Source: Candidatus Bathyarchaeota archaeon RBG_16_48_13 (GTDB lineage: Archaea; Thermoproteota; Bathyarchaeia; RBG-16-48-13). From it: 64,000 nt of DNA. This document shows, piece after piece, positions 15,904 through 32,138 of this stretch. Under the pieces are notes generated by a model. It saw nothing but the letters and a program-made list of their open reading frames with translations. It did no database searches and was not told where the DNA came from. The DNA lies in the NCBI GenBank assembly GCA_001775995.1, contig MEZH01000001.1, positions 32,001 to 96,000 on the forward strand, given 5' to 3'. The position numbers and the translations under genes were made by a program. How positions within the stretch are numbered: position 1 is the first letter of the stretch; the number at the start of each line of letters is the position of its first letter.

Positions 15904-16029
15904 GTCGCTCGCCAGAATCCCGGGCCCTCGTAGGCTCTCGCACCACAGGGAAACGGGACGTGGTCCTGCTTAGCTTCCGAGTTCGGAATGGGATCGGGCG
16001 TTTCCAAGACCCTATGACCGGCGAACGAC
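15904..16029 (-). rRNA. rrf: 5S rRNA (stand-alone)
   Basis: CCCGATCCCATTCCGAACTCGGAAGCTAAG core; terminal helix GTCGTTCGCCGG/CTGGCGAGCGAC. Confidence 0.95.
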
Positions 16030-17065: not shown

Positions 17066-17185
17066 ACATGAGAGAACAGATTCAGCAAACCTTTTAAATT
17101 GTTCGCATCCATCACACAACTTACTCTGGACCAGAAAGCGTAGAAACGTTTTCTGGCAAATAGTGTGTGCCGAGGGGCCTTATAG

Positions 17186-17319
17186 GCCGGGGTTGGTCTC
17201 CGACTACCGAAAGCTCAGCCTGGTTAGATGAGTGACCTCAAACCAAAGCGCCAGACCTCTCTATGAGAGGAGCGTTACTCATAATCTGGAGATCGTGGGT
17301 TCGAAACCCACCCTCGGCT
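17186..17319 (+). tRNA. Elongator tRNA-Met(CAT), introns at 8/9 (17194-17211), 22/23 (17228-17246) and 30/31 (17255-17276)
   Basis: Three BHB/relaxed-BHB motifs (CGGG/ACCG, GGTT/AACC, CGCC/AGCG); the spliced product is a 75-nt cloverleaf with CCAGA/TCTGG stem. Confidence 0.85.
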
Positions 17320-17324
17320 TTACT

Positions 17325-18029
17325 TCAAATGATGCTCTTCCTAAGAACATGTACAGTGGTTTTGTTACCAACGTAGACCTCTGTGGCCATATCTAGGAAA
17401 AGCCCTGTTTCAACAATTCCGGGGATCGTCTTGAGTTTGTTTTCGAGGTTTCCCGGTTCTTTTATGACGCCAAAATCCACGTCAATTATGAAATTGTTAT
17501 TATCAGTAATGACGGGCCCAACTTTGCCCAAGGACTGCCTTAAGATAGGTTTTCCGCCCAGTTGTTGGATTCTTTTCGACGATGTCTGTAGGGCGATAGG
17601 GAATATCTCAAGGGGAACTGGATGATCTAGAATCGCGGCAATTTTGGTTTCATCTACGACTATCAAGAGGTCTTTAGCGGCACTGTCAATAATCTTCTCG
17701 CGGGTTAGCGCCGCGCCTCCGCCCTTTATAAGGTTCAGATCTCTAGAGACCTGGTCAGCACCATCAATCGCGATGTCTATCTCAGGGTTTTCGTTGAGGG
17801 TAGTCAGTCTTATTCCAGATTCAATGGCCAAAAACATCGATTGATAGGAAGTGGGAATCCCTAAAACATTCAGACCTTCCGTCGCGATTCTTTTTCCGAG
17901 TTCTCTTATGGCATAAGCTGCTGTGCTTCCACTCCCCAAACCAACGATTTGGCCATCTCTAATTCTCTTAAGAGCTTGTTCAACGGCCGCTCTCTTTGCA
18001 TCCTCTCTCCAGTCCTTCTCAAAGGACAT
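17325..18029 (-). CDS. rpiA: Ribose-5-phosphate isomerase A
   Basis: GLGSGST, DGADQV, KGGGAALTREK, GPVITDN. Confidence 0.95.
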   Translation of the reverse strand: MSFEKDWREDAKRAAVEQALKRIRDGQIVGLGSGSTAAYAIRELGKRIATEGLNVLGIPTSYQSMFLAIESGIRLTTLNENPEIDIAIDGADQVSRDLNLIKGGGAALTREKIIDSAAKDLLIVVDETKIAAILDHPVPLEIFPIALQTSSKRIQQLGGKPILRQSLGKVGPVITDNNNFIIDVDFGVIKEPGNLENKLKTIPGIVETGLFLDMATEVYVGNKTTVHVLRKSII

Positions 18030-18031
18030 TC

Positions 18032-18652
18032 TTAGATTCCAGCCTCGGTCTTGTCGAGTTTTTCGATGAGCTTCAGTACCTCTTCCCTGATATTCTCGAT
18101 CTTCTGTTCTGTTGGACTCTTAGGAGTTGGTGGCTTAGGCTTTGTCTCCTTTGGCCTAGTCTTTTCCGACGGAGTCTTGGCAGCCTCATCCTTGGGTTTC
18201 TCTTCAGCCACTTCGCTACGCTTTTGCCCCAAGAGGCCACGGACATCGTCGATCTTACGATTCAATTCATCTATCTTTTCGTAGAACATCCCGATTAGTT
18301 CAGATTGAGTCTCTTCCAGTTTGTATAAGTCTATGACGGACTGACTATAATCTAGTTTCTCTTCTATCTGACTAAGTTCTTCTTTATACTTCTTGGTGAG
18401 GTGGTCCCGTTCACCCTCGCTTATCTTTCCTTCAGCCTCTGCCTCATAGAGTCGCGTCAAGGCGTAGCTAGTGATCTCCTTCAAGAGGCTGGAGATCTTC
18501 AACTCCTCTTTCGCTTGAGTTGCCTCTTCATCTTTGATCGTCTTACTGGAGGTGAATGGCAATTTCATTCTTGGTTCTTCTGTAATGGGAAGAGTCGTCG
18601 ACTTTTCAGGCTCTTTCTTTTCTTTTCCGAAATATTTCATTATACGGCTCAA
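18032..18652 (-). CDS. Charged coiled-coil hypothetical protein
   Basis: 206-aa ORF, E/K-rich heptads, Pro/Lys linker. Confidence 0.7.
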   Translation of the reverse strand: MSRIMKYFGKEKKEPEKSTTLPITEEPRMKLPFTSSKTIKDEEATQAKEELKISSLLKEITSYALTRLYEAEAEGKISEGERDHLTKKYKEELSQIEEKLDYSQSVIDLYKLEETQSELIGMFYEKIDELNRKIDDVRGLLGQKRSEVAEEKPKDEAAKTPSEKTRPKETKPKPPTPKSPTEQKIENIREEVLKLIEKLDKTEAGI

Positions 18653-18882
18653 AGAATCTGAAACCTCGGCTACAGTTAGGAGTATCCTATCCCGGATTAT
18701 GTAATTTCTGGAGTAGTTCTTATAAGCGTAATTTCTTCAAATAAAACATTTCTTGTCAATGGATTCGTTGGGAGAAAATTGGAAAAACATGGGCAATCCA
18801 GTAGGATTGCCGATTTTCGGGGAGGGAAAACATAAAAGCTAATCTATAACCTTCTTGAATGTCAAATGTGCCCCGGCATCGA

Positions 18883-19019
18883 GCCTCGGTACCCAAACCT
18901 TGGGCGAGAGAGCTCAGCATGGTCAGATGCCTTGAGTGCGAAGGCGGGCTAAAGCGCCAGCTTGGTATCCATCAACAAAGAGCTGTAGGTCGCGGGTCCG
19001 AATCCCGCCCGGGGCTCCA
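18883..19019 (+). tRNA. tRNA-Thr(GGT), introns at 8/9 (18891-18910), 22/23 (18927-18952) and 37/38 (18968-18980), CCA encoded
   Basis: Strict BHBs CTCG/CGAG and GGTC/GGCT, relaxed third motif; spliced length 78 nt; T73. Confidence 0.87.
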
Positions 19020-19389
19020 AGATTTTCCACTTTAATTATGAAGGAAAAAAAGGAAGAATAATGATCACATGCCCGTGGAAGGGCACAATACCCGAAAAAG
19101 GCTATTCGTAACTACTTTTTCTTTGGTTTTGCTTTTGCTTTCTTCTTGGACATTATAGAGTTCTCCGACTCGATAATTTTGTAGCTTTTAGAATAAAAAA
19201 CTTTACATCGAGAAACTGGCCCTAAACCAATTCGAAGAAGAGTTTGGAACCAAACCGCACCTTAGACGCATTCTGGAGCGGTATTTGGAAGCTGTTATTT
19301 CATAGAAAAAATTTAAAGACTCGTTTTGAGTCAATTAAGCGCCTTTATAGAGGAAACTCGTCTTTAAGACTTCACAATGAGGAACCTAA

Positions 19390-20223
19390 ATGTACCAGAT
19401 AGTAGCCGAAATAGAACTGGCGCCTAACATAAAGCAATTCAGAATCAATGCCCCGCTGATAGCAAAGAAATGTATGCCAGGTCAGTTCATAGTTCTCCGA
19501 ACGAACGAGAAAGGAGAAAGAATTCCTCTAACTGTCTTCGAAAAAGATCCCGGGGAAGGGACGATTACAATAATATTCCAAGAAGTGGGGAAAACTACCA
19601 AGGAGCTCGGTAGATTGAGAACCGGGGAGGCCATTCAAGACGTCGTTGGACCGCTCGGCACTCCTTCCGAAATTAGAAATTATGGTCAAGTCGTGGCGAT
19701 AGCTGGCGGAACGGCTGCTGCTGTGGCTTATCCGGAGATTAAGGCTTTGAAACTAGTTGGAAACAAACTGATAACCATTTTGGGTGCTCGCAGTAAGGAT
19801 CTCTTAATTCTTGAGGAAGAAATGAGAAAATACAGTGATGAATTATACATAACGACCGATGATGGCTCAAAGGGTCACCATGGTTTTGTGACAGATGTTC
19901 TCAAGAAGCTTGTTGCTGATGGTAAGAAAATCGACATGGTTCTAGCTATAGGGCCAGCTATAATGATGAAGGTCGCTTCAGAGATTACTCGACCTTTCAA
20001 CATACGGACGATTGTTAGCGTCAACCCTATTATGTTGGACGCTACAGGGATGTGTGGCGTCTGTAGAGTAAGGGTGAACAACGAGATGAAGTTGGGCTGC
20101 GTTGACGGACCGGAATTTGATGGGCACCTAGTGGATTTTGATCAACTTATGGCCCGCCAAAATATGTATACAGAAAAGGAAAAGGAATCCCTTCACGCAT
20201 ACGAAGCCAAAATGAAAAAATGA
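19390..20223 (+). CDS. sudB: NfnA/SudB-type FAD/NAD-binding 2Fe-2S subunit
   Basis: PGQFIVLR, ERIPLT, GPLG, TDDGS, NPIMLDATGMCGVCRV, CVDGPEF. Confidence 0.88.
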   Translation: MYQIVAEIELAPNIKQFRINAPLIAKKCMPGQFIVLRTNEKGERIPLTVFEKDPGEGTITIIFQEVGKTTKELGRLRTGEAIQDVVGPLGTPSEIRNYGQVVAIAGGTAAAVAYPEIKALKLVGNKLITILGARSKDLLILEEEMRKYSDELYITTDDGSKGHHGFVTDVLKKLVADGKKIDMVLAIGPAIMMKVASEITRPFNIRTIVSVNPIMLDATGMCGVCRVRVNNEMKLGCVDGPEFDGHLVDFDQLMARQNMYTEKEKESLHAYEAKMKK

Positions 20224-20236
20224 AAGGTGCAGGATA

Positions 20237-21724
20237 TTGGAGCTAAATAAAATAGACACAGGAATTTCAACCAAAGAGATGATATTGAACATAGTACTTT
20301 ACAAGGAAGACCCAAACTATCCAACAGTCTACAGATATTTTAGAAGACAGGAAATGCCAAAGCAACCCATAGTAGAGAGGATCAAGAACTTCAACGAAGT
20401 TGCTTTAGGTTTTGAGCCGGACCAAGCTATAATGGAAGCGAGCAGATGTCTGCAATGCCAAGATCCTCAATGTCGAAGGGGCTGTCCTGTTGGCATCAAT
20501 ATCACATCTTTCTGCGGGTATGTTAGAGAAGGAAATTTTGACAAGGCCATCTCAGTGATTAGAGAAAGCAACAGTCTTCCAGCAATATGTGGCAGAGTCT
20601 GCCCTCAGGAGAGTCAATGTGAAGCTTACTGCGCGATGGGTCAAACAGGGTCGCCTCTAGCTATCGGAGCTTTGGAGAGATTCTTAGCTGATTACGAATT
20701 GAAGAAGGGAATTACGATGCCTAGTATCGCTCCAATTACTGGAAAAAAGGTTGCTGTAATTGGATCTGGACCAGCAGGATTGACTGTAGCTGGGGACCTA
20801 GCCAAGTTAGGTCACATTGTCTCTATCTTTGAAGCTCTCCACACACCAGGTGGCGTACTAGCTTACGGTATACCTGAATTCAGATTGCCTAAGTCGATTG
20901 TGGCTGCCGAGGTTGACTATGTCAAAAGACTTGGTGCAAAGCTGGAGACTAACATGGTAATTGGAAAGATTTTCACAATCGATGAACTCGTTGAAATGGG
21001 GTACCAAGCGATTTTTCTAGGGACTGGAGCTGGATCGCCTTATTTTCTTAGTATATCTGGAGAAAATCTGAATGGAGTCTACTCGGCAAATGAGTTCTTG
21101 ACCAGATGCAATTTAATGAAGTCATATCTCTTTCCAGAATACGATACGCCTCTGATTGTGGGAAAGGAAGTTGTAGTGATCGGAGGAGGAAATGTGACAA
21201 TGGATTCTGCCCGAACCGCTTTGAGGCTCGGGGTGGAGAAGGTACATGTGGTATATAGGCGATCTGAACAGGAGATGCCAGCTCGAAGAGAAGAGGTTCT
21301 GAATGCTAAAGATGAGGGGATACTGTTTAATTTCTTGACATACCCTCTGCGACTCATAGGCAACTCTAGGGGTTGGGTTGAGAAGGTAGAATGCGGAATG
21401 ATGGAACTTTGTGAGCCTGATGAAACGGGTAGGAGAAGACCAGTACCGATCCCCAATCATAGTTTCACGATAGATGCTCAGACAGTGATCATAGCTATAG
21501 GTCAGGGACCAAATCCGCTCCTGTCAAAAGTGACAAAAGATCTTGAAACGGACAGAGATGGCCGTTTCATAGCTGACGAATGGGGAAGGACATCAAAGAG
21601 GGGCATTTGGTCAGGGGGAGATGTTGCAACCGGGTGGGCGGATGCAACGGTCATCAACGCCATGGGTACGGGAAAGAGGGCGGCATCTTCAATTCATCAA
21701 TTCCTGACAACTGGCCAATGGTAA
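20237..21724 (+). CDS. sudA: NfnB/SudA-type (glutamate synthase small-subunit-like) oxidoreductase
   Basis: RCLQC..PQC..GCP, CGRVCPQE..CE, GSGPAG, GGGNV..D.AR, GGD. Confidence 0.88.
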   Translation: MELNKIDTGISTKEMILNIVLYKEDPNYPTVYRYFRRQEMPKQPIVERIKNFNEVALGFEPDQAIMEASRCLQCQDPQCRRGCPVGINITSFCGYVREGNFDKAISVIRESNSLPAICGRVCPQESQCEAYCAMGQTGSPLAIGALERFLADYELKKGITMPSIAPITGKKVAVIGSGPAGLTVAGDLAKLGHIVSIFEALHTPGGVLAYGIPEFRLPKSIVAAEVDYVKRLGAKLETNMVIGKIFTIDELVEMGYQAIFLGTGAGSPYFLSISGENLNGVYSANEFLTRCNLMKSYLFPEYDTPLIVGKEVVVIGGGNVTMDSARTALRLGVEKVHVVYRRSEQEMPARREEVLNAKDEGILFNFLTYPLRLIGNSRGWVEKVECGMMELCEPDETGRRRPVPIPNHSFTIDAQTVIIAIGQGPNPLLSKVTKDLETDRDGRFIADEWGRTSKRGIWSGGDVATGWADATVINAMGTGKRAASSIHQFLTTGQW

Positions 21725-21748
21725 ACCGCCGTCATTTCTTATCGCAGT

Positions 21749-22590
21749 TTGAGATTGCTTCTTGGGTGGAACGATGATTTGAACTGGAACACTCTCATAT
21801 TAGAGGCAGCCACAGAAGTAAAGCGAAGAGTCACACATCTAGTTGGGACAAATGAGGGCAGAAGATCTTTTGGAATTGGAGCTGGCGGGGACACCACAAG
21901 AAAAATAGACAAGGCTGCGGAAGAAGCGATCGTTGATACCTTGAATTATCAGTGTGCTGCACCTTTGTGAGCGAGGAAATGGGCACTAAGATCATAGGTG
22001 GAGAATCAGATTTATTCGTGGTGGCGGACCCTGTTGATGGGACAACTAACGCACTTCATAGCATAGATTTCTATGCTACATCCATAGCAATCTCTGACAA
22101 ACCATTTTTGGACGGGGTGTTCTACGGATTAGTAATGAATCTGGTGAATGGTGAAGTATTTGAGGCTGGAAGAGGAAGAGGAGCTCTCCACAACGGACAG
22201 CCATTAGAGGTATCAAGCGAGACGGACGTCGCTTCGAGCATTGTAGGTATAGACTTAAGTGGAATCGATAAAATCATGCTGAAAAGAGTTGAACCAATTA
22301 TTTTGAGTTGCCGTCATCTAAGGCATTTTGGCGCCAACGCATTAGAGTTATGTCAAGTGGCTTCTGGACTGATAGAAGTATTTATCGATATTAGAGATAG
22401 GATTCGAGCTACTGACATAGCAGCAGCTTACTTACTACTAAGAGAGGCGGGTGGAGTGGTGCTGGATCCTACTGGGGTTGAACTAAATGTACCCTTGACC
22501 CCCAAATCCAGAGCATCTTTGATAGCCGGAAACCCAAAGATATGCAATAGGATTCTGGACAAATTCAGAATAGCCTCAAAGATTTACTGA
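21749..22590 (+). pseudogene. Inositol monophosphatase / FBPase family, split by a frameshift near 21950
   Basis: GAGGDTTRKIDKAAEE in frame 1; VSEE, DPVDGTTN, RATDIAA in frame 2. Confidence 0.85.
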
Positions 22591-22672
22591 TCGTGGCAGC
22601 AGATGATTCTTACTCCTTAACGGATCGAAGCTAAGTCAGGATTGATGTGGGTAGGTGTTTTTAGGATTTCAA

Positions 22673-22760
22673 TGGTGCGGAGGAAGGGATTTGAACCCTT
22701 GGACTCCTGCGAGACAAGGTCCTGAGCCTTGCGCCTTTGACCAAACTTGGCTACCTCCGC
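22673..22760 (-). tRNA. tRNA-Leu(CAG), no intron
   Basis: GCGGAGG/CCTCCGC, long variable arm, CCA encoded. Confidence 0.96.
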
Positions 22761-22883
22761 TGCAAACTAACCATAAGGGATATGCTCTCTCCCTTAAATA
22801 TCATTACTTAGAAAGAACAGAAACATTTCCAATTGAGAATCTTTTGAGTAAAGTGGACGAAATTGAGTTTAGCTTTAGAAAGA

Positions 22884-22971
22884 TGGTGCGGGGAGTGGGA
22901 CTTGAACCCACGAAGGCCTGCGCCATAGGAGCCTCAGTCCTACTCCTTAGACCTAGCTCGGAAATCCCCGC
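22884..22971 (-). tRNA. tRNA-Leu(GAG), no intron
   Basis: GCGGGGA/TCCCCGC, long variable arm, CCA encoded. Confidence 0.96.
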
Positions 22972-23037
22972 CTTGCCGACCAGAATCTAGATGGAATATT
23001 TCTTAGCTATTAAGGTATTCCAATTCCAAATGAATGA

Positions 23038-23111
23038 AGCCTCGGCCGGGCTTCGATCCCGGGACTTACGGCTTACGAGGTCGTCGCTCTACCAGACTGA
23101 GCCACCGAGGC
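23038..23111 (-). tRNA. tRNA-Thr(CGT), no intron, atypical T-loop
   Basis: GCCTCGG/CCGAGGC, loop CTCGTAA, T-loop ATCGAAG. Confidence 0.85.
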
Positions 23112-23202
23112 ACACTAACTATTGGAGAGGTAGAGGTTTTTAAAGAAATTTTTCATAATCTAAGGATATTATGTATAGACTCCTAATTGTGGGGCGTGAT
23201 AA

Positions 23203-24237
23203 GTGTTGTTGAGAGCTAAGGATCTTGGGGAATGGAAGATAATAGATATCTTCCATAAGAATTTCGAGGAAGCTCCTGATCTTCTAGTGCCCTTTGGCGA
23301 TGATGTCTCTGTGGTTGACCTTGGAAAAGATGCTTTGGCAGCAATTAAGACGGATATGTTGGTAGCTTCGACCGATGTGCCACCTGGGATGACGGACTGG
23401 CAAGTGGGTAGAAAAGCAGTGGTCGGAACGATAAGCGATTTTGCAGCAAAAGGGGTCGAACCCAAGGCCGTACTGGTCTCTTTGGGTATTCCTGCTGAAT
23501 ATTCGAAAATCAGCTTGGAAGCTTTAGCCAAAGGAGTCAATGCCGGGGCCAGAGAATACGGTGCCTTTGTCCTCGGAGGTGACACAAATGAGTCCAGAGA
23601 TCTGGTAATTGCAGTTATGCTCTTGGGGGCGACAAGAAAAGGCCAAATAACTCTCCGAAGCACAGCGAAACCCAATGATATTGTAGCTGTCACTGGCCCA
23701 TTTGGGAAGACTGCGGCAGGGCTACAATGCCTTGTTGATAAAACGGTAAGAATTCGCAGGAAGCTGGAAGCGGAACTATTGGAAGCCTTGTACATGCCGA
23801 AAGCAAGACTAAATGAGGGACTGACCCTGAGCAAGCGTGGTCTAACAACTTCCATAATTGATTCTAGCGATGGGCTAGCTTGGAGTCTTCACGAATTATC
23901 CAAATCAAGTAGAAAGGGGTTCATTGTAGACAAGTTGCCAACAACTGAGTCTGTGAAGGAATATGCAAAAATGAGCAACATTAAGCTTGAGGATCTTATC
24001 CTCTACGGTGGCGAGGAATATGAATTGGTCATGACTGTAAACCAAGAGAAATGGGAAGAAGCCAAAGAGGCTATTGAACAAGTCGGTGGAAAACTCATTA
24101 GAATTGGTCGCACAACACGTGAGCGAGGTGTTAGATACAAAAGAGGTCATGATACGATACTTATTGAATCTCGTGGATGGGAACACTTCAAATCAGGTGA
24201 TCAAAACAAGGAGACTCTAGCAAGGAGATTCAGGTAA
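23203..24237 (+). CDS. thiL: Thiamine-monophosphate kinase
   Basis: FGDD, KTDML, SDFAAKG, GGDTN, DSSDGL, GGEEYEL. Confidence 0.93.
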   Translation: MLLRAKDLGEWKIIDIFHKNFEEAPDLLVPFGDDVSVVDLGKDALAAIKTDMLVASTDVPPGMTDWQVGRKAVVGTISDFAAKGVEPKAVLVSLGIPAEYSKISLEALAKGVNAGAREYGAFVLGGDTNESRDLVIAVMLLGATRKGQITLRSTAKPNDIVAVTGPFGKTAAGLQCLVDKTVRIRRKLEAELLEALYMPKARLNEGLTLSKRGLTTSIIDSSDGLAWSLHELSKSSRKGFIVDKLPTTESVKEYAKMSNIKLEDLILYGGEEYELVMTVNQEKWEEAKEAIEQVGGKLIRIGRTTRERGVRYKRGHDTILIESRGWEHFKSGDQNKETLARRFR

Positions 24238-24300
24238 AGATGACTAATTTGTGAAAGATCATCACGCATGCGATGCAAGCTTTCTCGCATGTAATTGTAG

Positions 24301-24445
24301 CGGGCCCGACGGGAATTGAACCCGTGACCCCCGGATTTCTTCTTTTCTCATTAAAAGTTTCACCGAAGCGCCATTTTCAGGCGACCTCTCCGATGCTCTT
24401 CCTAGCTGAGCCTCCCGGCCGAAACAAAGATCGGCTTACGGGCCC
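24301..24445 (-). tRNA. tRNA-Lys(TTT), introns at 9/10 (24412-24436), 30/31 (24359-24389) and 37/38 (24337-24351)
   Basis: BHB central helices CCCG/CGGG, CATC/GGTG, CTTT/GAAG; spliced length 74 nt. Confidence 0.9.
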
Positions 24446-24514
24446 ATGGACCCGCTAAGAAGCTTTCTCAAACGGAATCTTCCTAATAACTTTTCCTCTT
24501 CCATTTGTTATAGT

Positions 24515-24527
24515 AAAAATTTAAATA
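24515..24527 (+). promoter_or_regulatory. Probable BRE/TATA for tRNA-Asp
   Basis: AAAAA-TTTAAATA ending about 26 nt upstream of G1. Confidence 0.55.
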
Positions 24528-24553
24528 AAAACTGCTCATTCAATGTGATGGAA

Positions 24554-24683
24554 GCCCTGGTAGTATAGCCCGGCCTAGTATGTGCGGCTGAACCCGAAAA
24601 AAGGGTAGCCGAATCACCCGCACGACCCGGGTTCAAATCCCGGCCAAAGGAAAGAAAAGAATCTTTCCTACCGAAGGGCGCCA
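24554..24683 (+). tRNA. tRNA-Asp(GTC), introns at 34/35 (24591-24613) and 68/69 (24647-24675), CCA encoded
   Basis: BHBs CGGC/GCCG and CGGC/ACCG; spliced acceptor GCCCTGG/CCAGGGC, G73. Confidence 0.9.
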
Positions 24684-24769
24684 CACTTTGATAGTGCCGG
24701 GGCTTCGCCATTCCATCAATTGACCGGTTGTCATTTTTATAAGCTCCAAGAGCGATAGATCATTTCCAG

Positions 24770-31694: not shown

Positions 31695-32138
31695 GTGTCA
31701 ATGCCCATCTTTCTGGAAGAGTACCTTCAAAAGAACTTGTTGAGATGTTCCATTCGAGAGATTCTTCTGGATAAAGAGTTAGCCCAGCTGGGCGACGCAT
31801 ACGTGAATTTCATTTACTCTCTCGCTCTATCTATTTCTGAAAGAAGACCGCTCGGAAAGAAGGTTTCCAGCGAGATCTTGGCAAACGCTATCAAGGAGAG
31901 CGATATCCGGCGGCTTCTACCCAGCGGATCTGATAGACATACTCAAGGAGATGCTGCTGAAGCATTAATATTATGCTCATGGATAACTGACAGGGTGACT
32001 ATTGAAGAAGCTGTCAGAATCTTGAGAAAAGAAGCTGACCCGGTAAAGGCGTTCAAAGGACTCCTACTGCAAGTAATGAAAGAGTTCTCCGAGAAAGGTT
32101 TAAAAGAAAGAGTAAGCGAACCACTTCGCGAGTTGTAG
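31695..32138 (+). CDS. Archaeal RNase III-like protein
   Basis: LAQLGDAYVNF, GDAAEALI. Confidence 0.75.
   Translation: MSMPIFLEEYLQKNLLRCSIREILLDKELAQLGDAYVNFIYSLALSISERRPLGKKVSSEILANAIKESDIRRLLPSGSDRHTQGDAAEALILCSWITDRVTIEEAVRILRKEADPVKAFKGLLLQVMKEFSEKGLKERVSEPLREL

Follow-up and report, generated by a model that had tools for sequence, protein, structure and literature searches.

A flanking copy of the acceptor strand accompanies acceptor-proximal introns in archaeal tRNA genes

In an archaeal genome whose transfer RNA (tRNA) genes are heavily interrupted, introns that lie next to the acceptor stem are accompanied by a second copy of the 5′ acceptor strand, placed in the leader just upstream of the gene. 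The stretch of DNA in which this was noticed (the window) comprises 64,000 nucleotides of Candidatus Bathyarchaeota archaeon RBG_16_48_13, positions 32,001 to 96,000 of contig MEZH01000001.1 (contig C1 here), and is part of an 849-kb, 75%-complete genome bin (G000). Across this genome, a leader complement of at least 7 bp to the 3′ acceptor strand is found in 6/6 genes with an intron between positions 8/9 and 10/11 compared to 1/27 of the others (Fisher p = 6 × 10^-6). We regard it as fairly probable that the copy serves as a stand-in strand, which pairs with the 3′ acceptor strand for as long as the intron keeps the real 5′ strand occupied, and that a related element in the trailer of tRNA-Asp, where the intron interrupts the other side of the stem, acts as a clamp. 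All of the evidence is computational and comes from sequence comparison and a folding model.

How a precursor with an intron in or near its acceptor stem folds for the splicing endonuclease has hitherto been unexplained, and intron catalogues and tRNA finders disregard the flanks of the gene.

Association with acceptor-proximal introns

The genome-wide scoring covered 30 tRNA genes with contiguous acceptor strands, together with three further genes that were inspected by eye. The six positives are tRNA-Met, tRNA-Thr(GGT), and tRNA-Lys in the window and tRNA-Ser, tRNA-Asn(GTT), and tRNA-Gln(TTG) on contig C7. When the leaders were compared with the 3′ strands of other tRNA families, 7/7 pairs were never reached (0/172), and a chance origin of the copies is ruled out by these genome-wide and cross-family controls. 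An earlier reading of the window from its letters alone (the first-pass annotation) had tied the copies to introns that occupy the acceptor stem, and the strongly unequal counts across the genome agree with it.

A near-copy was also seen beside tRNA-Gly(GCC), whose sole intron is at the canonical 37/38 position. Here, the sequence GCGGTTG (L035:72-78; contig C7, 103271-103277) resembles the gene’s own 5′ strand, GCGGTCG, and lies 11 nt upstream. It is either a chance match (approximately one such case is expected per five genomes of this size) or the relic of a lost 8/9 intron.

The introns discussed here are of the bulge-helix-bulge (BHB) type. In the definition that was applied, which reportedly originates with Marck and Grosjean in 2003, a 4-bp central helix joins the four exon bases that precede the 5′ bulge to the intron bases that precede the 3′ bulge, and the cuts fall within the 3-nt bulges. 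This wording agrees with that of the 2026 Asgard census (bioRxiv 10.64898/2026.10.13.758758). ARAGORN and Rfam recover only some of the interrupted tRNA genes, so the T arms and acceptor strands were located by script and the genes were parsed by hand; the splice-pair script kept only those pairs whose product restores the D-arm pattern. Two 3-nt bulges around a central helix were found for the 68/69 intron of tRNA-Asp and for all 15 acceptor-proximal introns of this genome and its relatives, and in 13 of these 15 the central helix has 4/4 pairs (the Met and Asn genes of this genome have 3/4). Removal of the introns gives a canonical tRNA with U8, a D arm, and a 7-bp acceptor stem, and the hand parses of Met, Thr, Lys, Asp, Asn, and Gln concur with the script.

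The three leader copies of the window

In tRNA-Met(CAT), on the plus strand, the surrogate 5′ acceptor strand is the leader sequence GCCGAGG (17169-17175), which forms 7/7 Watson-Crick pairs with the 3′ acceptor strand CCTCGGC (17312-17318), immediately 3′ of the T arm, with a predicted pairing probability of 1.00 in the precursor. The true 5′ strand, GCCGGGG (17186-17192), has a G5-T68 wobble and is followed by T8 (17193), an 18-nt intron at 8/9 (17194-17211), and then A9 and the D arm. The BHB of this intron is relaxed, with 3/4 pairs in its central helix (CGGG/ACCG). Two additional introns are present in the rest of the gene (17212-17311), one near 22/23 with a clean central helix (GGTT/AACC) and one near 31/32, for which no canonical BHB was found in the unspliced sequence. 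The latter may become spliceable only once another intron is out.

The plus-strand tRNA-Thr(GGT) gene has the leader copy GCCCCGG (18870-18876), which makes 7/7 Watson-Crick pairs with the 3′ acceptor strand CCGGGGC (19009-19015); a discriminator T and an encoded CCA follow, up to 19019. Its true 5′ strand, GCCTCGG (18883-18889, with T8 at 18890), pairs with the same partner through a T4-G69 wobble, and positions 3-6 of this strand form the central helix with the intron sequence CGAG. The 20-nt intron at 8/9 (18891-18910) is a canonical hBHBh′, with a central helix of 4/4 pairs, an h′ of 5 bp, and an h of 4 bp that includes leader bases -2 and -1.

The third gene, tRNA-Lys(TTT), lies on the minus strand. 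Its leader element, TAGCGGGTCC (24448-24457), forms 10 bp (one of them G-U) with GGGCCCGCTA at 24307-24298, again with a predicted pairing probability of 1.00. The partner consists of positions 67-72, the discriminator, and three trailer bases, so this copy is shifted by 2 nt relative to the true strand; the 3′ end of the gene as a whole reads CGGGCCC, discriminator G, and trailer CTA (24298-24308). The true 5′ strand is GGGCCCG (24445-24439), which with T8 and A9 occupies 24437-24445, and its positions 4-7 form the central helix with the intron sequence CGGG. The intron itself, at 9/10, has a length of 25 nt (24412-24436) and is a canonical hBHBh′ with 4/4 central pairs, an h′ of 5 bp, and an h of 4 bp. 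In the folding model described below, the probability of this central helix is 0.98 with the leader and 0.00 without it.

In these 5′ cases, the central helix is built from acceptor positions 3-7, and the outer helix from positions 1-2, some leader bases, and the 5′ strand of the D stem. Because the BHB helices take acceptor-stem positions, the BHB and the acceptor stem are mutually exclusive. What the first-pass annotation had described in the window is confirmed by these parses. The intron positions it gave (8/9 in Met and Thr(GGT), 9/10 in Lys, and 68/69 in Asp) were reproduced by script and by hand (Asp by hand), and the introns do consume acceptor-stem bases, with the Asp central helix competing with the T stem too. 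The flanking copies are where it had placed them, in the leader for Met, Thr, and Lys and in the trailer for Asp, each forming 7-10 bp with the free strand. It had also reported no copy beside the other tRNAs of the window, and indeed no other gene there reaches 7/7 leader pairs.

Relatives and leader-blind searches

The genome has no close kin, and the nearest genomes belong to other families of the same order. In one of these families (f2), all Thr(GGT) orthologues have the 8/9 intron and the leader copy, with unrelated spacers between the copy and the gene; the copy variants GCCTCGG and GTCCCGG retain pairing via G-U. All Rfam tRNA matches were then taken from two further genomes. In the one (G011), Tyr, Met, and Thr(GGT) each have a 9/10 or 8/9 intron together with a copy, and in the other (G004), a 10/11 intron and a copy occur together in both Gln genes. 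The spacer is just 1-3 nt in four of these genes.

Among the relatives as a whole (loci from 40, with 125 distinct tRNA genes), the nine genes with such an intron have eight full copies and one partial copy. A copy was found in 0/110 normal tRNA genes and in 0/5 genes with D-loop introns. The association that the first-pass annotation drew from a handful of genes thus extends to the relatives (nine genes compared to 0/115), with a Fisher p of 8 × 10^-12, which, like the other p values, is overstated because related genomes are not independent. The five D-loop introns without a copy also rule out a link between the copy and just any intron in the 5′ region.

Judged from the sequences, the copy tracks the intron across several independent presence/absence contrasts between orthologues. 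In G000, the Ser and Gln genes have an intron together with a copy, and in G011 they lack the two; the GGGCCCG-type Met gene has intron and copy in G011 and lacks them in G000. The Tyr gene of G011, with its 9/10 intron, has a copy, whereas that of G000, with a D-loop intron, does not. For the tRNA-Met gene of the window, BLAST was too insensitive to find orthologues, owing to its three introns.

To avoid choosing genes by their leaders, Thr(GGT) genes were searched for in 401 genomes of the class with a pattern made of the 5′ exon and the intron ends only. The search returned 11 genes, of which nine have a full copy (five genomes of a further family, f21, are among these) and two a 5-bp copy. 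A search of the same kind, directed at the 10/11 intron of Gln and run over 151 genomes of the phylum, gave five genes, all from another class, with a perfect copy in four and 6/7 pairs in one; a sixth match to the pattern (G034, L156) proved not to be a tRNA. Taken together, 14/16 genes found blind to the leader have at least 6/7 pairs, and among them are genes from a family of another order and from another class of the phylum.

The two shorter Thr(GGT) cases (L143 and L144, from G024 and G031) belong to one genus. All that goes with their 8/9 intron is a conserved leader element of reduced length, GACGCCCC, which forms 5 bp with positions 68-72 and may be the minimum that suffices.

Conservation of the copy and the start of the transcript

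The copy has been retained while the spacers that separate it from the gene (1-13 nt) have diverged in both length and sequence. It is kept in four families across two orders of the class and in a fifth family in another class. The base right after the copy is T in 0/15 genes, and 4/5 in-register mismatches between the copy and the true strand preserve pairing with the 3′ strand. From these patterns, the copy looks to be maintained by selection.

Promoter spacing bears on whether the copy would be transcribed. In 133 uninterrupted tRNA genes, a motif resembling the B recognition element and TATA box (BRE/TATA), with the consensus GAAAGATTTA, begins 39-44 nt upstream of the mature 5′ end. In 10/15 interrupted genes, the best such motif begins 35-45 nt upstream of the copy (45-58 nt from the true +1), and three others show the same arrangement by eye. 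By this spacing, the predicted transcript would begin right at the copy, and the copies are presumably transcribed. Correlation of AT profiles was too weak a method for placing the promoters, and motif spacing was used in its place.

Two simpler accounts of the upstream copy were ruled out. It is not a true 5′ exon with a larger intron, since T8 never follows it, it forms no BHB with the body of the gene, and spacers of 1-3 nt are too short for introns. Nor does the splicing endonuclease have to remove the leader for want of ribonuclease (RNase) P, as a full-length RNase P RNA (199 bits) is encoded in the genome.

Folding of the precursors

The 15 precursors were folded with the ViennaRNA partition function at 37 C, each with its native leader, with a scrambled copy, or as a transcript from 2 nt before +1. 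With the native leader, the mean probability of the central BHB helix is 0.56, the helix between the copy and the 3′ strand has a probability of 0.59-1.00, and the true acceptor stem is near 0. When the copy is scrambled, the mean for the central helix falls to 0.16. In the transcript from 2 nt before +1, the central helix has a probability of 0.00 in every gene, and the acceptor stem forms at 0.96-1.00. The difference between the native leader and either alternative is significant (Wilcoxon p = 6 × 10^-5, n = 15). This means that, within the model, it is through the copy that the splice motif can form.

The trailer copy of tRNA-Asp

In tRNA-Asp(GTC), on the plus strand, the arrangement is reversed. 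The 29-nt intron at 68/69 (24647-24675) leaves a 3′ exon of just GGGC (positions 69-72), G73, and CCA (24676-24683), with only four acceptor bases 3′ of the intron. The trailer copy, CCGGGGCTTC (24697-24706), forms a 10-bp duplex of -19.9 kcal/mol with the leader GAA and the 5′ acceptor strand GCCCTGG (24551-24560, the strand itself being 24554-24560), and this duplex is part of a 12-bp helix in the minimum-energy fold. The central helix of the intron uses positions 63-66 (T stem and acceptor stem) and so competes with both stems alike; it has 3/4 pairs here and 4/4 (CGGC/GCCG) in seven relatives. A second intron interrupts the gene at 34/35 (24591-24613).

The 68/69 intron and complements in the trailer were found in eight genomes from five families of the order. 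The duplex that the trailer forms with the 5′ strand and the leader has a median energy of -10.95 kcal/mol in the eight genes with the intron compared to -5.0 in 15 orthologues without it (p = 4 × 10^-4). The trailer element is less regular than the leader copies, and the base opposite T5 varies freely. The clamp is in the minimum-energy fold and is compatible with the BHB, as the BHB-constrained fold costs only +0.4 kcal/mol. Since no more than four acceptor bases follow the intron, the trailer is read as a clamp on the tiny 3′ exon until ligation, and in light of the folding model it is probably a tether rather than a placeholder.

Another pairing appears in the predicted fold of the tRNA-Asp precursor, in which the D-loop sequence GCCCGG (24567-24577) pairs with the 5′ strand of the T stem, CCGGG (24627-24631), left partnerless by the 68/69 BHB. 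It may be a second, internal placeholder or a mere artefact of the model.

One relative (G002; L081, minus strand) has a 5′ fragment approximately 167 nt upstream of its tRNA-Asp gene. The fragment (GCCTTGG, T, and then GGTGCAGT...) resembles the Asp variant of sister genera, and the complete tRNA-Asp gene of this genome is of a different sequence type. By its sequence, the fragment seems to be what was left when the end of a gene was replaced, as the model for Caldiarchaeum proposes.

A proposed mechanism and its rivals

In the explanation favored here, a BHB intron at 8/9 to 10/11 would draw its central helix from acceptor positions 3-8 and its outer helix from positions 1-2, the 5′ strand of the D stem, and, in some cases, the last leader bases. 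The transcript would begin with a copy of the 5′ strand, 7 nt long (5-10 nt), located 1-13 nt upstream of the real strand. By pairing with the 3′ acceptor strand, the copy would stop that strand from displacing the splice motif, and the resulting helix, which probably stacks on the T arm as a minihelix, would close the precursor. The splicing endonuclease could then cut and the ligase join the exons, after which the real 5′ strand would recapture the 3′ strand and RNase P would trim the copy off with the leader. For the 68/69 intron of tRNA-Asp, the mirror-image element in the trailer would pair with the 5′ strand and leader, and its likeliest role is to clamp the short 3′ exon (four acceptor bases and GCCA) until ligation. 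What the analysis shows is the association, its conservation, the potential to pair, and the thermodynamics of the model; the order of these events, the strand exchange, the RNase P step, and the transcription of the copies are inferred.

One alternative is that the copy is the scar of the intron’s arrival. An integrating element or homing cassette would have swapped in an intron-bearing tRNA end, leaving the old end as a functionless direct repeat. In Caldiarchaeum, a 5′ fragment of tRNA-Thr(GGU) does lie upstream of the copy of the gene that gained an intron, and integration of a mobile element has been proposed (Sugahara et al. 2012, PMC3293823). The promoter precedes the copy, as though the copy were the original 5′ end, and the Asp-like fragment 167 nt upstream of the full tRNA-Asp gene in G002 has a similar look. 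However, the repeat is limited to the seven acceptor bases and stops short of T8 in every gene, the short spacers hold no trace of a D arm or an element, and conservation of the copy reaches across families and into another class, beside spacers that have diverged. Most of the differences between the copy and the true strand preserve pairing, and the folding model requires the copy for the BHB. A scar could account for the origin of the copy, but not for its retention, and as a whole explanation it is improbable.

Two other alternatives give the copy a different task. Under one of them, the flanking copy mainly holds a terminal exon of very few nucleotides (8-10 nt for a 5′ exon and 8 nt for a 3′ exon) on the body of the tRNA between cleavage and ligation. 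This fits tRNA-Asp well, where only four acceptor bases follow the intron, the trailer clamp provides 7-12 bp, and the clamp is without influence on BHB formation in the model; it is also in line with split tRNAs, whose halves are joined by leader/trailer helices (PMC4090602). As a general account it is unlikely, though less so than the scar, because the exon of 8-10 nt freed by a 5′ intron has a complete acceptor strand and could hold on unaided, and because the strong effect of the model in the 5′ cases is on BHB formation and not on exon retention. Under the other, the copy sets the order of end processing, in that a minihelix of copy, 3′ strand, and T arm allows the 3′ end to be completed by RNase Z or the CCA-adding enzyme and holds RNase P off the true +1 until splicing. 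The copy is at the predicted 5′ end of the transcript, it forms a 7-bp helix with the 3′ strand beside the T arm, and RNase P RNA is present. In several genes, moreover, leader bases -1 and -2 take part in the outer BHB helix and would be lost to early cleavage by RNase P. Against this, CCA is encoded in many of these genes, and an end-processing role seems about as improbable as a scar.

Several observations weigh against the stand-in strand itself, beyond the overstated p values. The near-copy beside tRNA-Gly(GCC) occurs without an acceptor-proximal intron. Nor is a full copy a strict requirement, as two genomes of one genus have only 5 bp and one Gln gene has 6/7 pairs. In the model, the probability of the splice helix is low in some genes even with the leader (0.20 in Met, 0.08 in Thr, and 0.00 in Ser), and when the intron is deleted in silico, the copy is still favored over the true strand (0.87 compared to 0.04). 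Because of the latter, the hand-over to the real acceptor stem needs something beyond the model, for which tertiary structure, removal of the other introns, and irreversible RNase P cleavage of a minor conformer are candidates. Transcription of the copies has a single line of evidence, the spacing of the promoter motif. The splicing endonuclease (PF01974) was not found in this genome, an absence that is not interpretable at 75% completeness. Covariation had been suggested as a check, but the acceptor strands of Thr(GGT), Gln, and Asp are invariant among the orthologues found and so offer none that is two-sided.

The remaining objections concern tRNA-Asp, where the trailer pairing is weak in one family (f3, -7.5 to -9.7 kcal/mol) and the trailer has no effect on the BHB helix in the model (0.18 native, 0.18 shuffled, and 0.19 when cut at CCA). 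Since the trailer does not favor the BHB, the four cases of the window may not share one mechanism. The first-pass annotation had proposed a placeholder helix common to all four genes, which would keep the precursor folded or order splicing against cleavage by RNase P and RNase Z. As a placeholder, the copy is well supported in the 5′ cases, where comparative and thermodynamic computation agree with it and scrambling the copy lowers the central helix; for Asp, a placeholder is not supported.

Known systems and wider meaning

The leaders of bacterial ribosomal RNA (rRNA) precursors offer a parallel, as a transcribed flank there pairs transiently with a mature segment and is later removed, which is what is proposed here; the RNA and the enzymes are different, and no splicing takes place. 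Non-canonical and multiple BHB introns of archaea (PMC4090602, PMC4033280, bioRxiv 10.64898/2026.10.13.758758) share with the present ones the two 3-nt bulges, the 4-bp helix between exon and intron, the non-canonical sites, and the number of introns, which can be up to three per gene. Unlike in the genes described here, no copy of an acceptor strand in the leader or trailer is described for them in these two reviews and the census. The word “leader” does not occur in the census at all, and the reviews use it only for split and permuted tRNAs. The first-pass annotation knew of no description of such a copy, and none was found in full-text searches, the two reviews, and the 2026 Asgard census, although an earlier mention may still exist.

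Split and permuted tRNAs (Nanoarchaeum equitans, Caldivirga, and Cyanidioschyzon) are similar in that sequence absent from the mature tRNA pairs to present or hold the pieces for the endonuclease. In those systems, however, the flanks pair with each other and make the BHB, whereas here the gene is contiguous and in normal order, and the flank copies a mature strand and pairs with its mature partner. The helix of the copy and the 3′ strand contains no bulge-helix-bulge and no splice site. The direct repeats of integrating elements (att sites of the SSV and pNOB8 types; Caldiarchaeum tRNA-Thr(GGU), PMC3293823) likewise place a second tRNA end beside the gene, and in one documented case this is associated with the gain of an intron. 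Such repeats extend over tens of bases, enclose kilobases of element DNA, and show no conserved pairing, in contrast to the copies here, which are 7 nt long, lie 1-13 nt away with no element DNA between, and are conserved across families with no neutral decay.

If the explanation is true, a conserved helper strand explains how acceptor-proximal introns get spliced, and it adds a rule on where introns persist. The copy would also be a simple mark for spotting hidden acceptor-proximal introns, and the precursor would be a compact natural RNA switch, open to a test with a single transcript, a single endonuclease, and compensatory mutations. The finding belongs to the field of archaeal tRNA splicing, and this direct testability is its appeal. 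It bears on the debate over tRNA intron gain as well, since the event that introduced the intron could have left a remnant that was later domesticated as the helper; a scar of that kind may be the raw material of the copy.

A general archaeal rule can be proposed more tentatively, with our confidence in it just short of even. Under this rule, an end-proximal BHB intron would persist only with a cis-encoded stand-in (at the 5′ end) or clamp (at the 3′ end). The precursor would be a two-state RNA switch, triggered by splicing and resolved by RNase P, and the stand-in would be gained and lost with its intron, limiting the sites that introns can occupy.

Neighboring features of the window

The tRNA cluster of the window is bordered by a 5S rRNA gene (15907-16025, 78.5 bits), which stands apart from any large rRNA gene in the window. 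Amid the tRNA genes is an open reading frame of 495 amino acids (20237-21724). Its best matches (53-58% identity) are solely to bacterial genome bins, namely Latescibacteria, Bacillota, and Krumholzibacteriota, which suggests a gene gained from bacteria.

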